Shown: positions 3,294 through 48,992 of the stretch, in pieces
Layout of the letters: each line of letters opens with the position of its first letter
How positions within the stretch are numbered: position 1 is the first letter of the stretch
Assembly (NCBI RefSeq): GCF_024521635.1
Contig: NW_026250403.1
Location: 2,914,001-2,978,000 of the forward strand
Direction of reading: 5' to 3'
Source: Tricharina praecox
Taxonomy: Eukaryota
DNA: 64,000 nt
Notes under the pieces: model-generated
What the model was told of the DNA's origin: nothing
The model's input: only the letters and a program-made list of their open reading frames with translations
The model's database searches: none
Position numbers and translations under genes: made by a program

Positions 3294-6200
3294 ATGAGCT
3301 CTCGTCCAGGCTCTCGTTCGGGCTCCAGTGGACCCGATCAGCCCGTCGTCGACCTCTCACTAATCGGACGATGGGATCCAAAAGACGGCACCAACACGGC
3401 CGATGTGATGATATATGCAAAGGCAAGCTCATATGATTCCCCCCCCCCCCCCCCCCAATTGCCCGTTGTCCCCATGCACTTGTTGTGTTCCTGCCGTGCC
3501 CTGTAGCTTTCCGAGCTCACACCACACTGGGCAAAACTAGGTTACGCCGCCGCAGCAGCAGCACTCGTTGAGGATCCCCTTCCTGCACCTCCAGCCGTTG
3601 GTGCTCCAGTCCACGCTCGTACGTGTCGTCCCCCTGCTGCCCGACGGCACGAGTCCTTGGGGGTCGCCCGGCGTTAGGGCGCTCGGTGTTTCTACCGTGG
3701 CTGGAAGGAAGCGGCGGATGCCGAGGGGGGGACCATTGCGGCGTGGGGATGGGGATGGGGAAGGGGGGATGGTGGACGGGGGAGGGGATGGGAGGGCTAC
3801 GGCTGGTGGTGGGGATGATGCGGAGTCGGTGGGTTCATCTTCTAGTGGGACTGGGACTTCGTTGCTTTCGAATGGGTCTTCGGAGGCACCGTATGATGAT
3901 GGCAGCCCGGAGGATCCGCTGCCTAATCTCATGCCACCACTTACGTTCGACGAGATGGATCTTTCTTCCGTCGAGGGCTTCGGGGGCGTCAGGCTGGGTG
4001 AGGTTGAGGTTGAAGATTCCAGCCGACAAGACAAGACCATCAGTGCAGACGAGCAGCAGGAGGAAGCTTCATCAATAGTGTCCAGTCCATTTCCCGAGCG
4101 GGGCCGCTGGCTACCAAGGGACCATGCAGCGTCGACCTCGCCAGAGCCCGGAGTGGCGCCTTTTGCGATGGCCGGGAGGAGATGCGTCAGTTATACCAGG
4201 ACCTATGACGGTGTGATGCAGCGCGTTCCACTGGGTGCCCATGAGTGGGACCGCATCCAGAAGTGTGCCGAGAGGATTCAGAGGGTTGAGACCCCCGTTG
4301 CCACGAGAGATAGAGCGGCCAATGTGGCTTTCACCCCGAGGGTCGATAGTAGAGGGAGGATAATCTCCTCGGGATCGTACAACAGTATCAGGAGCGTGTC
4401 GCCTCTAACCGCCCATCTGGCTCAGCGGCTTCAGCATGGTGATATTGATCACTCGGTGGACGAGGAGGAGATGGCAGAGCTGCTGCCTCACGGACACGAT
4501 GGCCCTGGAGAGTTCAGAGACAAAGTTAGGGGGAAGCTTCGCGGAGTCAGGCATGTGATGTTTTCTGAAGATCGACATTCTGAGTCGGAGTCGGAGGATA
4601 AGAACGCTGAAGACGACGAGATTACGATCGCCGTGGAGGACAATTCCCTCGTTGTGTGTTTCCTTCAACACGTCCGTCCAGATCCAGTGGTTATCGAGAT
4701 ACTGCTCAAGGTCAGGCCCATCCTGCTCGGGCAGAACAAGAACTACCATACCTTCATCTTTTCCGGCCTTCCTTACTGTAGGAACCCGGCCTTTTTCGAC
4801 TTCAGGGTCGACAGAGATGACGAGGAGTGGGTCTTCGATGCGGGCGATCACGACCAGACGGCTACGTTCGAACCTCTCGTTCTCGATGAGCCAAACAGGC
4901 TTCGTGGACAACTACATCTCCGGGATGCAACGCCTACCCAGCGCAGCATCATCATGCGGGCACAACGAGTTCCTTCCCATGTCGAGATTTACGGGCATAA
5001 GATTCGAAGCAAAACCAACGCTCTGTTCTCGTGGACTCCGGATGGGCATGTCGTGGCGGAGTTCGAGATAAAGGTTTACTTGATTGATGTCGATGTTGCG
5101 GACAATGTGGCGCGAAACATGATAAACCTGATACTCGTGAACGGCGTCGATGATCCCAAAGAAATCACAGTAAACTCCGCCTCTGGTCGCCGCGAGAAAT
5201 TCTCTCTGGAAGGTCCGGTGATGAAGGATGGCGAGGAATTGCAGAGTGCTCGGCTTCTGCAGGTCTCGAGGCTTGTGCGGGACTCCCGAGATTCAATGAC
5301 GATCAGCTTCCGCAAGGTTCAGGAATCTTTTCCCTGCTATTTTCACATTCCCCTGGTTGAAACCGGCAGTCACCGCGATATATTGGAGCAGATAGTGGTG
5401 ATTCATGAGCCACGTCTACCGCTGACCCTAGCCTTCACTCCGGATCTGTCGTTCTGGCGCGATCTGGGTGAAGAGAAGGATCTACTGGGTTCGAGGAAGA
5501 TAACTAGAATAGTTGACAGCTCGGCAATCGAATATCCCAGGGTCTGGGTGAATTCGCTGGAACCCGTCTGTTCAACCGCCATTGCCGTTCTCGGCAAGTT
5601 CAGAAACCTTGGGTTCGTCGATAAATTGACGTACCAGATCGAGGAGCACTCGCCGGCGCTCTGGAGCGCACGCAATCCAATTTCTCTCCACTTGCGAATG
5701 TCATTTGAAATTGAGGGCCCGGTGAAGAATGGAGCGGAATTGTCGAGGGTGCACAGAGGGTTATTTCAGGTTGAGTTCATCACCATCAATGGCGCCCCGG
5801 CTAAGATGGCATTCATGGACGAGGATGAGCTGGTCATCCTTAATCACGGGCATGAGTACGAGACGGTGCCGATGAAGTTCAGCGTTTACTGGGTATCCAT
5901 GCAACCGCATACCACCGACACGATTGGCGGGGGCAAGATGCTGGAATTCCAACTACCGCGCATCCACGAAAAGTTGGTGGGTCGAGCGGTCTGCAAGTAT
6001 CCGCATGGACCAGCCCAAATAACCTCAAGGTCACACCTCCTGGATACACCCCCGCCAGACGCTGGGCCCTGGACCGTGGTTTTCACCAACGGAAAGGCTA
6101 CCCTGTCAGGATTACAGACTTTTAGCAGCCGCATGTACCTTCAGATTCCGGCAGAGTCGTCCCGGTGGCCGCCGAAGTCCCGGGCCGGAAGCATCATCGC

Positions 6201-43724: not shown

Positions 43725-44948
43725 TCATCCAAACGTACCCGACGACGGCCGCACGCTTAACCGCCGATCTCGATCTCGGGATCTATCAAACTCGATACTG
43801 ACACTATCTCCATCGTCACCACCAGCGCCACTGCCTCGTATCACCGACGAAGCCGCGATGCTGCTAGTCGCATACCCAGACCTGCGTCTCGGCTGGGTGA
43901 TGATAGTAGCGCCCGACGCCGTTCTAGCCCTTGAGGGGAGATATCTGCTCCCGGCGTCGGATCTGTCAGGCGTATACCCGCCACTGGCAATCCCGCTGCC
44001 AGCGCCGGCGTCATACGAGACGAACCCGTACTCCTCGCTCGACACCGTTTCGTACCCGCCATACCCTGCCGCCGCCTCAAACAAATATCCGCGACTGCTG
44101 CGGTCGCGGTCGACCCGCACCGAGCCCTCATACTCCCTTCCGCCGTCGAGATACTCCCACCCTGGCTGGTCCTGCTGCTGGATCTCCTGCGCCGTCGGCG
44201 GCGGACTCGCGCACATCCCGGCCCTCAGCGCCCTCAGCGCCTTCATCAGCGCACGGAACTCGCTCTCCTCAACGCCCTTGCCACGGGTGCGGAACCTCGC
44301 ACGCTCATACAGCGCCACGAAAAGCTCACTCTCGTCCCTTGGGGCGAGTTCCATGGCTACCAGTCCCTCGAGCCAGGCCCTAAGCGTAGCCGTTGGCGGC
44401 CTGCTCACAACCCTCGGATCCACGTCCCCTCCGTGCACCACCAACTCCGCGGCCTCGCGCTCCAGCAGCGCCGGCAGCTCCGCCACAAGCGCCGCATACT
44501 CCACGCCGCGCAGCTCGCCGCCCGGCGGCGCCCAGCCGGGATGGTTCAGCGCGCCCCAGACCTTCTCCCCTTCCCCCTCCCCGCCAGTGGGCATACACGG
44601 CCTAGCGCCCCTGGCGACCATCGCACTCCTGGCAATCCCCCGCGTGACGACGGCATGCATACGTTTCGGCAGGTCTCGCCGCGACACGGGCGGCACGCTC
44701 TGAGGGATCGCGGCGAGGAGCCGCCGGAACGTGTACATGCGCGCCGTGTAGAGGACGGCCCCCAGCACGCCTGTCAGAAGGTAGCTGCCTGAGATCACGA
44801 AGATGTTGGCTAGTCGCGCGTGTGTGGGGAGCCGCTGCGATTGCTGGATCGTGTCCCCGAGGGGGACGAGGACCAAAGCGAGGAGGATCAGTGAGAGGAA
44901 GGTGAAGGTTGTTGAGTAGAAGAGGTGGAAGAAGGTTAGGCGTGGCAT
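43725..44948 (-). CDS. DLT1: Defect at low temperature protein 1-like membrane protein
   Basis: Intronless 407 aa with two N-terminal TM helices (FYSTTFTFLSLILLALVLVPLGD; NIFVISGSYLL...LYTARMY...LAAIP), plus HPGW and YERARF motifs, matching my recollection of fungal Dlt1. Confidence 0.75.
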   Translation of the reverse strand: MPRLTFFHLFYSTTFTFLSLILLALVLVPLGDTIQQSQRLPTHARLANIFVISGSYLLTGVLGAVLYTARMYTFRRLLAAIPQSVPPVSRRDLPKRMHAVVTRGIARSAMVARGARPCMPTGGEGEGEKVWGALNHPGWAPPGGELRGVEYAALVAELPALLEREAAELVVHGGDVDPRVVSRPPTATLRAWLEGLVAMELAPRDESELFVALYERARFRTRGKGVEESEFRALMKALRALRAGMCASPPPTAQEIQQQDQPGWEYLDGGREYEGSVRVDRDRSSRGYLFEAAAGYGGYETVSSEEYGFVSYDAGAGSGIASGGYTPDRSDAGSRYLPSRARTASGATIITQPRRRSGYATSSIAASSVIRGSGAGGDDGDSVSIEFDRSRDRDRRLSVRPSSGTFG

Positions 44949-46339
44949 GGTGGGACGGTGGGTGTGCTGGGTGCGGTGAAGGCGGCGCGGAGAACATTGG
45001 TTGTCGCTGCCGGCATCCGAGGGTGCGCTGCGGTGCGCGTGGGGTTCGGGCCGGGTCCGGGTCCGGGTCGGGTCGCTGAGATGGCCGATGGCTATCGATT
45101 TGGAGGGGGGGGGGCCGAGACTCGAGACTCGGGGCCGGCGGGGTGTGCGGTGTTTGGTGTTTGGTGGGGTGTTTTGTCGAGGTATGTACCCGTAAATGCT
45201 CGAGTGGTGAGGTTAAAGGGTGGGTGTAATCACGAATGTTCCGGTTGGGCTTAGGGCCGTTCTCGAACTTGGCGGGCGACAAGGGCGCTATTTCTTGGGG
45301 CCACGGTTGCTCACTCGGTGCTGTGTAGAGCACTAGACAGGATGCATTTGTGCACGGATGGAAATCGCAAGACGGAATCAAGTTCCATGGAGAGGACTCG
45401 ATCTGTCTCCGAGACGCGCACGTGGCCGCTACCATCCTATGTATATACCATCCGACCATCCGCGCCTTCACTCGCAGCTTTAAGCATCTACTAGCAGTCG
45501 TAGCGGCCCACCCGTAGGCCGTAGCAAGCCGGCGACTCTGGATGGATAGATCGGACCTCACGCCCCGAATCTCACGCCCCCCATCCTCACCCTCAACCGT
45601 CCCGTCCGTCAACAGTCAAACGTGCATCGCCCCGCCTTCCCCCAGCTTGGCGATGGCGACATCTTAGCTAGAATAGAGTAAAGTGCACAACGAGCCGAGC
45701 AAAGAAAGAAAGAAAAAACCCCTCAGCCCGAAGAAAGAAATAGAGCTGAGAAGGATGCGTGTGAGTGTGAGTCAGACAAAGTTTCAACAGCTACCCCAAC
45801 CCCCACAGTCAAACTCCAGGCCTGCCGAGGATGGGATGGAATGGGAACGGGATGATCAACAGAACGGATGTCAGGATGGAACTTGGAAGTATTGTACATA
45901 TACTTTAGAATAGATAAGCGACGTAGATACGGTTTGCATAGATATTACAAAACGGGACTCAACATGTCGACAGGTAACGCAGAGTAAGGATCAGGGTGGA
46001 AAGAGAAAAAAAAATTCCACACCCGATAACAAGATGTTCAGATGTTCAATCCCACAATAAACACACACGCCAGAAAGCCCGGAAACCACTCCTCGATATA
46101 AATAAAAAAAAAAAAAGATCCCCATTAACCAGAAGAAAATAAACAAAACAAACGGGCCCGAATCAAAAGAAACAAAAATGGCCTCGACGAAAATACGAAG
46201 AAACACACACGGTCCCCCCACTCCCATACTCCAGATCTCCATTTCCCATATACAGCACAGCGCACACCCAAGTCAAGTTACATACACACAGTCTCGGTCC
46301 ACATCCAACAGCTCCACCTACTTAGCTAAGTACATGGAC

Positions 46340-47055
46340 TTAATCGAGAAGCTCCTTGCGGGGGTCCTTGACGGTGAAGACGTGCGCATCGGGGTCCTCG
46401 GGACACTCGAGCATGTGGCACTCTCCGGAGCTGATGTTGTAGACCCAGCCGTGGACCTCGAGTCCGCGCTCCTCAATGGCCTCCTGGACGTTGGCGTTCT
46501 TGAGCACTGAGCGAACCTGCTCCATGACGTTGAACTCGACCAGCTTGTCGCTCTGCTGCTTAGGCGTCAAGCCGACCAGCTGCTTCTCGTACTTTGCCCG
46601 GACCTCGCGCACCCCCCGGAGCCAGCTGTCGATGAGTCCCAGCTTCTTGTTGGCGAGCGCAGCATTGACGCCTCCGCAGCCGTAGTGGCCGCACACGATG
46701 ATGTGCTGGACCTGGAGGACCTCGACGGCGTACTGGAGGACACTCAGGGAGGAGAGATCGGTCGCCGGGAGGAGGTTGGCGATGTTACGGTGGACAAAGA
46801 CCTCTCCGGGCTGGAGATCGAGAACCGTGGTCTCAGGAACGCGGGAGTCGGAGCATCCGTACCAGAGGATCTGGGGAGATTGGCCTTGCGCGAGGGCGGG
46901 AAACAGGGCGGGGTTGGTCGCGGCCGTTCGGGTAGCCCATTGGCGGTTGCGGTTGAGGATGCTGCCGAGGAGATCGTCCTGGGTGGATTCTGTGCGCATT
47001 CGGTTAGTCATGCTGGATCCATCGCGGGTGTTTCGGGTGGATAAAACGTACCCAT
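46340..47055 (-). CDS. NCE103: Beta-class carbonic anhydrase (AUG-initiated form)
   Basis: Zinc ligand motifs GCSDSRVPE, GEVFVHRNIAN and IVCGHYGCGGV. A micro-exon ATGG (47055-47052) is spliced over intron 47051-46990 (GTACGT...ACTAAC...CAG) to give MESTQDDLL. A longer upstream extension is possible (see findings). Confidence 0.93.
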
Positions 47056-48992
47056 CTTAGCGATTACTGGTGCTGGTAGGGGTAGTGGTGGTGTAGTGGG
47101 AGTGGCTGTTGTTGCGATAGCTGCTGTGGATGATTCTGCTCGCGAAGATGATGACTGCCCGGAAGACTCCTGTGCGATTTTCCTTGTTTCGTTTGTAGCG
47201 GCGGTGTCGTTCGGGGTGGAGGAGGGTTCAGTTATATACTCGGGCGGAACTTCGGTCGACAGGGGTTTTTCTCTCTTCTCGTCGGTGGTGGCGGGCGGAG
47301 GTGGAGCCGGCTGCACCGGCGCTTTCTCCTTCAGTTTAGGTTGCTTGTCGCCATTCTTCTTTCCCTTATCATCCGAACCGCCTCCAACACCTCCACGGCG
47401 CTTTAGCGCTCCGCCGATTGACCAAAAACCCGCCAGCGTGGCGATGAAACGAAAACTGGGGGGAAATAAGCTGTGGAGGGATCTGCTATCAGCCGTGACG
47501 TCTGCGACCCGTTGAGGTGTGTGTGTGAAACGATAGAAACGATAGAAACGAAAGCTACAGGGCTGGCAGGGGACAGAAGTATACTCACTTTAGGTAGGTG
47601 AAGCGGAATAAGCAGAAGGCAACACAGCAGTAGACACCGGGGGTCGAGTGGCTGCGTGTCAGAGTCAGACCGAGGCCGAGACGGATGATGTATGGAGGCC
47701 GAAACAGGGAAGTGGAAGAAGCTGAAGCCCGGGTGTTGGTAAGTGATGTATTGGTTGTAGAGTAATGTGTTATTTGACGATGATGTCGCTGATGGTACAG
47801 ATATCGTCAGAAACTTTGTCGAGCGACAATGTGATGATGATGATGATGATGATGGGAGAAGGGGATGTCACGGCGTTCTTATGCCCGCGGGTTATTATTA
47901 TTATTATAACCCACTGGGGGTGTGGGGGGGGGAGGGCGGGACAACTCCGAGACAGGCAAGCCAAGGGATTTTCTTTCCGATTTTCAATGCACAGCTCGAG
48001 AAAGGGAGCGTAGAATCTACCGGTACGTCTGGGTATGTAGAGTGGTATGTAGGCATGGAGTATGTACATGCTGCTGCTGCTCGGTTTTGCGGTGGAGACC
48101 TCTACCCTACTCTCACTCTACTCTACCTGCCCTTGACTCCTGTCCAGTGTCCAGACCCACAGGGCAATTGGCGCGGGGATGTTCTTTGTATGCGGTGTCT
48201 TACCTGCAGGCCTACATCGAGAAGGTTTGTTCTCGAGTGTGGCCCCCTTGTCCTATCACTCCAGCATTTATGCGGTATTCGGTTAGTTACTCTACTCTGC
48301 TGTGGATTCTCTTCTCTCCCCCCCCTTTGCTCGATGGCGGTGTGTGGTGTTGAGTGTGGTGGCGGTGGTTTTGTTGGGATATGAGAGGCTGGCCAGGTAT
48401 CCGGAGATCGCCCTGACCCTGCATGTTTGCGAGGACGGCGGGCAGTCCAGCGGGCTTGGGCACTTTGGACGTCATGGCTGATTCGGCACGGCTTTTGGTA
48501 CGCAGCAACGCAGTGCTCTATGTACTCTAGATACTCTAACGCAGTGGAGCACGAGCACAAAGCCCGCTGTTGCTCTAGAGTAGGTACTTCCTCAGGTATC
48601 TACTTCCTCACATGAAGCCAAAGAGAGTGGCGGCAGCCTGTATGCGGGCTCCAACCACCAATCAACTACTAGCTACATCCTCATGCACTGCACAATGATG
48701 GCTGAACTTCGCAGCTCAGGCGGAAGTGGCTCCTCGGATCTCCACCTCCTGTTCCCACCGACCCCGCGGCGGCAAGTCGTGATTCCCGATGGTTGGAAGA
48801 TGGCCCCCACAGTCGCATCTGTTTGTCCCACGTCCAATTAGAGTCGAGCAGCATGATCACCCACCCTTCCACCCACCCACCCACACAAACACCCACACAC
48901 ACCCACCCACCAGGATGAGGGGCTTCATGTTGTGTTTCTGATTGAGTTGCGTAAGGTGTATGTAGGCAAGGAGACGACGACGGCGACGACGG

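Follow-up and report, generated by a model that had tools for sequence, protein, structure and literature searches.

Initiation at non-AUG codons can supply a fungal protein with an N-terminal targeting extension, as it does for ALA1 and GRS1 in yeast, and the fungal arginine attenuator peptide is a conserved product of an upstream open reading frame (uORF). In Arabidopsis, alternative first exons with AUG starts give plasma membrane and cytosolic isoforms of the beta-carbonic anhydrase BCA4. Other fungal non-AUG extensions with targeting signals, as excerpts of the sources describe them, are those of a peroxisomal 6-phosphogluconate dehydrogenase (PMC7214817) and of cryptic mitochondrial isoforms in yeast (PMC6582344), and BCA4 is likewise described as having three annotated isoforms and tissue-specific translation (PMC12401059). 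Here we describe a beta-carbonic anhydrase gene on the minus strand of a 64,000-nucleotide (nt) stretch of Tricharina praecox contig NW_026250403.1 (positions 2,914,001 to 2,978,000; hereafter the window, with coordinates counted from its first letter), in which the spliced mRNA leader holds a long open frame that is continuous with the enzyme and contains no in-frame AUG. Because the proximal part of this frame appears to be under protein-level selection and no AUG-bearing upstream exon is seen, it is best read as an in-frame extension that would be translated from a non-AUG codon.

The locus resembles the fungal non-AUG extensions in having an AUG-less open reading frame (ORF) in frame with the enzyme and within the mature mRNA, protein-level conservation, and a strong downstream AUG. 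It differs in length, with at least 127 codons from a candidate CTG at 47436 where tens are typical; in being mostly a disordered linker; in opening with a hydrophobic helix and KRR in place of a recognizable presequence or peroxisomal targeting signal; and in that a more distant relative (L004) keeps the peptide without the fusion. The sequence-only reading had cited a non-AUG start for a mitochondrial beta-carbonic anhydrase of Sordaria, but excerpts of PMC2664464 give an ATG start and a 60-residue targeting sequence for CAS2, the mitochondrial plant-type enzyme of Sordaria macrospora, and treat the CTG start of the Neurospora crassa homologue NCU08133.3 as annotation only; ascospores formed only with cas1 or ATG-cas2, and a CTG-cas2 construct did not restore them. 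Like CAS2 and NCU08133, the latter once annotated as starting at CTG, the present gene encodes a fungal beta-carbonic anhydrase with a putative N-terminal extension; that of CAS2 sets its location. Unlike CAS2, the extension in the window has no AUG and no AUG-initiated presequence, and its presequence-like distal part is not conserved in frame. The long and short forms proposed here for a single gene would recall those of BCA4, but would arise from near-cognate initiation on one mRNA and not from alternative first exons. The likeness to conserved-peptide uORFs lies in a short, conserved, leader-encoded peptide and in the L004 ORF, which ends before the main ATG; in the window, by contrast, the ORF has neither AUG nor stop and runs into the main ORF, and the peptide is hydrophobic and membrane anchor-like with no known regulatory ligand, unlike the arginine attenuator type. 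A full-text literature search gave no report of a non-AUG start for a fungal carbonic anhydrase among the matches listed, and the excerpted text of a 2026 review of fungal carbonic anhydrases (PMC13514724) mentions only AUG-type targeting sequences.

The enzyme is a plant-type beta-carbonic anhydrase of 217 residues that starts MESTQDD and matches Pfam family PF00484 (Pro_CA; E=1.9e-51, 174.9 bits, cut-off 25.7) over profile positions 1-155 of 156. Its translation contains GCSDSRV and CGHYGCGG, and thus the CxDxR and HxxC motifs, whose Cys, His and Cys we take to be the zinc ligands. A protein search with the enzyme scored 8000 candidates, all 8000 with E<=0.001, and the closest named relatives among the matches listed (the best 120 of 8000) are Pyronemataceae (Pezizomycetes): Pyronema omphalodes (84% identical), Sphaerosporella brunnea (83%), and Trichophaea hybrida and Wilcoxina mikolae (80% each). 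A further protein, P0001, is 97% identical to the enzyme.

The transcript structure was read from assembled cDNA-like contigs, in which minor isoforms are not visible. One contig from each of two separate studies (X1, 1497 nt; X2, 2048 nt) lacks exactly 47471-47588 and 46990-47051, with no mismatches, and extends to 47823 and then for 23 (X1) or 35 (X2) letters inside the (ATC)n repeat at 47824-47864, which was masked in contig placement and hides the exact transcript 5' end. A 262-nt soil metatranscriptome contig (X3) is also spliced at the 62-nt intron and extends to 47273. Two further runs, X4 and X5, contained almost none of the sampled sequence words and did not enter the comparison. The junction 47588/47471 that the sequence-only reading had proposed is therefore exactly the one used in X1 and X2. 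That reading had named a transcript start downstream of ~47300 or an upstream AUG-bearing exon as fatal to it; the transcript starts upstream of 47823, and no upstream exon bearing an AUG is seen in the contigs to at least 47823. The interval 47865-48115 has no coverage in X1 or X2. Because the contigs skip the introns and reach at least 47823, the leader is ~690 nt long after splicing and contains the entire open frame. The first exon ends one base past the ATG at 47055-47053 (ATGG/GTACGT), an arrangement also found in three of the relatives described below (L001, L002 and L006). We note that P0122 (219 residues, NCBI), seemingly the public model of the window's enzyme, starts MRTESTQ at the ATG 46999-46997, inside the 62-nt intron; this intron is spliced in three runs, and the true enzyme start is therefore the ATGG micro-exon (MESTQDD) and not the ATG of P0122.

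Joining 47809-47589 to 47470-47053 gives 639 nt, comprising a TGA, 211 sense codons and the ATG of the enzyme, and no further in-frame ATG occurs across the 211 codons of the spliced frame; the claim that removal of the intron opens the 47055 frame to this extent was borne out, and the peptide strings match. An open run of at least 211 codons in the 687-nt spliced leader has P=0.003 (5000 dinucleotide shuffles), and the open 138-codon proximal exon alone has P=0.015 by the same kind of shuffling. In the distal exon, where C is abundant and stops are scarce whatever the frame, openness is unremarkable because other frames are also long and open (a 154-residue ORF at 47403-47867 is an example). 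The frame is nonetheless in phase with the enzyme, uninterrupted by stops, devoid of AUG and part of the mature mRNA, as a non-AUG extension has to be.

For comparison, metagenome contigs were scanned with the main exon of the enzyme. This gave 61 loci, six of which encode enzymes 83-96% identical to that of the window. These six amount to four different sequences: L001 (96%; L003 does not differ from it over the stretch compared), L002 (93%; its contig ends 249 nt upstream of its ATG), L006 (84%), and L004 (the same as L005; 83%). In the proximal exon of the window, L001 and L002, frame 0 has no stops, whereas every other sense frame has three to seven. All seven proximal-exon indels are multiples of three (3, 3, 6, 33, 3, 3 and 3 nt, in an unconstrained nucleotide alignment); the corresponding count for the distal exon, both introns and the 3' untranslated region (UTR), window against L001, is 8 of 22 gap runs. 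Substitutions between the window and L001 number 20, 20 and 41 at codon positions 1, 2 and 3, and the minimum numbers over the three species are 34, 29 and 56 (56 of 119 at third positions; binomial p=0.0013). Ratios of nonsynonymous to synonymous rates (dN/dS, Nei-Gojobori) are 0.37, 0.44 and 0.51 in frame 0 and 0.76-1.23 in the two shifted frames, with the window-L001 value of 0.37 standing against 1.05 and 1.09. The excess of synonymous changes, assessed by permutation of substitutions, has P=0.001 for window-L001, 0.02 for window-L002 and 0.08 for L001-L002, and the same permutation predicts a new stop in ~80-91% of trials, whereas the three species have none. Synonymous sites differ between the window and L001 by a proportion (pS) of 0.34, similar to the intron divergence of 0.32-0.33, and nonsynonymous sites by 0.15 (pN). 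We take these patterns to show that the proximal exon is under purifying selection at the protein level in the species of the window, L001 and L002, which are close relatives (the last is also represented by the predicted protein P0121), and this AUG-less part of the extension is probably coding. No such signal comes from the distal exon.

Conservation is strongest at the 5' end of the proximal exon, 47460-47389, which reads PSFRF(I/T)ATLAGFWSIG(G/S)ALKRRGG and contains the peptide PSFRFIATLAGFWSIGGALKRRGG, whose hydrophobic character was judged by eye. Alignment codons 1-20 have four synonymous and two nonsynonymous differences, those between the window and L001 around the peptide core being synonymous (GCG/GCA, GGT/GGC and ATC/ATT), and P0121 carries the same peptide. 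The L004/L005 version is FPIVATAAGFWAITGGKRKQKG, in which ten residues are retained, six of them through another synonymous codon, a pattern to be expected of selection on a peptide rather than on a nucleotide element. A synonymous excess is seen again over the last 40 alignment codons (101-140; 10 synonymous and 8 nonsynonymous differences). AlphaFold2 modeled the extension with a mean predicted local distance difference test score (pLDDT) of 55.8 and a single low-confidence helix at residues 6-18 (FRFIATLAGFWSI), a prediction that is weakly compatible with a helix plus disorder. The helix and the basic cluster that follows it may be no less like a signal anchor than like a mitochondrial presequence.

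The distal exon behaves differently. Between the window and L001 it has nine indels, of which only two have lengths divisible by three, and the reading frame differs between the two species in parts of it, such that the suggestion that this part encodes a presequence-like peptide is not supported. Conservation of the frame in relatives, a check that the sequence-only reading had named, held for the proximal exon in the close relatives and failed in L006 and L004/L005, where the frame is broken. The 13-codon uORF which that reading had cast as a tuner of the two forms is present in the window and accounts for the only two ATGs of the spliced leader, both out of frame, but a conserved tuning role finds no support in L001, which lacks both ATGs. 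L001 has three out-of-frame ATGs of its own in the proximal exon (3703-3787; 215, 188 and 131 nt upstream of its ATG 3916), and these open short uORFs at positions unlike those of the window. Judging from these leaders, short uORFs are common to them and their positions are not conserved.

No in-frame ATG is present in the leaders of the window or L001, spliced or unspliced. Three codons are candidate near-cognate starts: CTG 47662, which has A at -3 and is kept in L001, and the adjacent ACG 47439 and CTG 47436, which are identical in L001. The context of the main AUG, with A at -3 and G at +4, is shared by CTG 47436. Because the PSFRF residues just upstream of ACG 47439 and CTG 47436 are also conserved, a start further upstream is favored; the stretch between 47662 and intron 1 is frame-discordant between the window and L001. 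Each of the three is put forward as a candidate only.

A plausible account of the locus is that it would produce two forms of the enzyme. The mRNA would start near 47860 and carry the ~690-nt leader with its single 118-nt intron, and most ribosomes would probably start at the strong-context AUG 47055 to make the 217-residue, presumably cytosolic enzyme. A minority may start upstream in frame, at CTG 47436, ACG 47439 or CTG 47662, giving a long form in which a short hydrophobic helix and KRR (FRFIATLAGFWSIGGALKRRGG) would be followed by a disordered linker of ~110 residues, in which Pro, Ser, Thr and Lys are frequent, and then by the enzyme. The helix and basic cluster could tether the long form to a membrane or target it to an organelle. 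The spliced transcript, its open frame and the protein-level selection on the proximal exon come from the data; that initiation is non-AUG, at which codon it occurs, how abundant the long form is and where it resides are inferences. Taken as a whole, this account has in our judgment an even chance of being correct.

Several observations weigh against it, and other readings draw on them. First, the frame does not persist in relatives at a greater distance. The corresponding leader of L006 carries a frameshift and meets a stop 35 codons ahead of the ATG, and the motif was not found there within 571 nt of upstream sequence; in L004/L005, two stops lie between the motif and the enzyme, the first of them a TAA that closes the motif ORF 33 codons ahead of the ATG. 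Only a narrow clade therefore has the fusion to the enzyme, and CTG 47436 and ACG 47439 are not kept in L004 either, which has ACT GCG. (An intron that would remove the L004 stops was considered and rejected; GTAGTT, a poor donor, is the sole candidate, and with either acceptor a stop remains or the frame is wrong.) Second, the middle of the linker, alignment codons 61-100, has 5 synonymous and 20 nonsynonymous differences and is near neutral. Third, the codon usage of the extension is poor: the frequency of G or C at third codon positions (GC3) is 0.51 and that of A (A3) 0.30, compared to 0.85 and 0.06 in the enzyme, and for most of the other long ORFs in the window GC3 is 0.55-0.79, above that of the extension. 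Such usage fits low-level translation or none. Fourth, the splice sites of L001 were inferred from sequence, not RNA. Fifth, a profile search of 1.84 billion representative proteins gave P0121 and no other predicted protein with the extension; an alignment search at near lengths likewise gave P0121 alone, and a protein search at longer lengths gave no match with E<=0.01 among 4898 candidates. Such absence says little, because gene callers require AUG starts. A search of the ESM Atlas with the extension yielded no usable match, and Pfam assigned no family to the extension, P0121 or the distal translation. P0016, with an enzyme 71% identical and 28 open codons upstream of its Met, has no profile similarity to the extension (probability 0.1%) and was dropped.

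The first of these readings is that the leader ORF is translated, but that the hydrophobic peptide is itself the functional product, as an upstream regulatory or small independent ORF, and its fusion to the enzyme is incidental or secondary. The behavior of L004/L005, where the motif is conserved as a peptide and two stops intervene before the enzyme, is what would be expected of such an ORF, and a motif that is best conserved ahead of a nearly neutral linker of poor codon usage also suits it. A self-contained uORF, however, requires neither the ~110 codons that run on past the motif without a stop or frameshift in the window, L001 and L002 species, nor the multiple-of-three lengths of all seven indels, nor the synonymous excess in codons 101-140; in addition, no AUG is available to start a motif ORF in the window or L001, and L006 lacks the motif. 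We regard this reading as unlikely, although deserving of some weight.

The second is that the region is an ordinary, long, intron-containing 5' UTR that is untranslated in this frame, open by chance where C is abundant and stops are rare, and conserved at the RNA or DNA level. The lack of an AUG, codon usage resembling that of noncoding sequence, the other long open frames of the distal exon, and the frame breaks in L006 and L004 are all compatible with this, and at 0.21 the window-L001 p-distance of the proximal exon is not far under the 0.26 of the distal exon. There is also a candidate for nucleotide-level conservation, the TATATAACTGA element, whose ATAACTGA core is kept in four of five relatives' sequences (L002 reads ATAATTGA). 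Because the core is kept regardless of frame, and because in L004 the element supplies the TAA of the motif ORF, it is a nucleotide-level element; a role as the TATA box of an internal promoter that would drive a short mRNA is speculation. Chance openness and RNA-level conservation do not readily explain the three-periodic substitutions and synonymous excess, the preservation of frame through every proximal indel, the absence of stops in three species where permutation expects them in most trials, or the L004 motif with its synonymous-only differences at six codons, and RNA structure downstream of the candidate CTG, in the motif region, is ordinary (z=0.35). We consider an untranslated leader improbable, to about the same degree as a stand-alone peptide.

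A broader and more doubtful conjecture, to which we attach only a low probability, is that the leaders of beta-carbonic anhydrase genes in Pyronemataceae carry an old, AUG-less hydrophobic-peptide element (AT.AGFW.I.GG plus a basic cluster), which has switched between a stand-alone uORF (the L004 lineage), loss (the L006 lineage) and, through a fast-evolving linker, an enzyme-fused membrane anchor (the window lineage). If so, a uORF would have turned into an N-terminal targeting module, or the reverse, and the element might couple CO2/bicarbonate metabolism to translational control.

It could also be that the extension is translated from an AUG that the contigs do not reveal, supplied by another first exon or start site or through retention of an intron, since minor isoforms are invisible in contigs. 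The ORF of P0121, which was called from a genomic contig belonging to the L002 species, is open through the whole proximal exon and then into intron 2; it begins 20 codons ahead of the exon, at an ATG in sequence matching the window's intron 1. At alignment codon 43 the AAG of the window is replaced in L002 by an in-frame ATG, and in L004 an in-frame ATG lies 74 codons upstream of the motif. Judging by its genomic sequence, an AUG-dependent route exists in at least one relative, the L002 species. In the window, however, a retained intron 1 would contribute no ATG, and without splicing the frame runs into TAA 47592-47590, both ATGs of the spliced leader are out of frame, and no contig covers 47865-48115, while L001, with or without splicing, likewise offers no in-frame start. 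For the window we therefore think an unseen AUG very unlikely. Although the antisense frame that shares wobble positions with frame 0 has similar permutation P values (0.0115 and 0.007), which also tells against the sense reading, an antisense gene was rejected in view of a stop in L001, a single Met near the end of the frame, and spliced transcripts that are sense. The account that we favor remains an AUG-initiated short form accompanied by a minor, near-cognate-initiated long form, with the features set out in Table 1.

Table 1. Features of the beta-carbonic anhydrase gene and its leader, in window coordinates
Feature	Position	Strand	Evidence or remark
Main coding exon, beta-carbonic anhydrase	46340..46989	-	Stop TAA 46342-46340; Pfam and protein matches
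Intron 2, 62 nt, holds ATG 46999-46997	46990..47051	-	Skipped by cDNA-like contigs of three runs
ATGG micro-exon end, AUG start of enzyme, context AAG ATG G	47052..47055	-	Splice 47052/46989 seen in three runs
Proximal leader exon, 138-codon AUG-less frame continuous with enzyme ATG	47056..47470	-	No stops, dN/dS, indels, substitution pattern
TATATAACTGA element (core ATAACTGA, 47235-47228; L004 3814-3824)	47228..47238	-	Kept whatever the reading frame
Out-of-frame 13-codon uORF, ATGs 47372-47370 and 47354-47352, TGA 47333-47331	47331..47372	-	Present in window
Most conserved peptide PSFRFIATLAGFWSIGGALKRRGG, hydrophobic helix then basic cluster	47389..47460	-	Codon table, P0121, L004, low-pLDDT helix
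Candidate near-cognate starts ACG 47439-47437 and CTG 47436-47434 (ACG CTG G)	47434..47439	-	Identical in L001
Leader intron 1, 118 nt, GTGAGT...CACAG	47471..47588	-	Exactly skipped, one contig each in X1 and X2
Distal leader exon, 5' end approximate, within (ATC)n repeat 47824-47864	47589..47860	-	X1/X2 contigs; not conserved as coding
Candidate near-cognate start CTG in ACT CTG ACA, A at -3	47660..47662	-	Kept in L001, frame 0 under inferred splice
In-frame TGA, upstream bound of open frame	47807..47809	-	Spliced translation
FRFIATLAGFWSIGGALKRR			Segment of extension

The flanks of the gene have features of their own. At the 5' end of the mRNA there is an (ATC)8 repeat (47841-47864), which reads His8 in the leader frame, upstream of the stop, and beyond it a (TAA)5 repeat (47898-47913). 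Just upstream of the contig 5' ends, the block GGGCATAAGAACGCCGTGACATCCC (47866-47890) is nearly identical in L001, and sequence further upstream is ~50% diverged; the block is probably a core promoter or start region. Beyond the uncovered gap, at 48116-48700, three X1 contigs of depth ~3 indicate a weakly expressed neighboring transcript. On the other side, the 3' UTR contains a long T run on the mRNA strand (46104-46204), at which many short X1 contigs pile up; the X1 contig of the enzyme ends at 46170, and the X2 contig is one base shorter at 46104. An X1 contig of depth 83.5 (vs 845) at 45630-46072 and the X2 contig run on past the 3' UTR of the enzyme toward the next minus-strand ORF, 43725-45212, which has 495 codons and hydrophobic segments. 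This coverage could be read-through or an overlapping neighboring transcript.

If the long form exists, a single gene would provide both a tethered or organelle-targeted and a free carbonic anhydrase, and beta-carbonic anhydrase would join the short list of fungal enzymes that are dual-localized through near-cognate initiation. Annotation pipelines are blind to such forms, and here the model P0122 even starts inside an intron. The L004 lineage, in which the peptide is kept and its ORF stops before the enzyme, offers a natural comparison for how a leader ORF and an N-terminal extension may interconvert.

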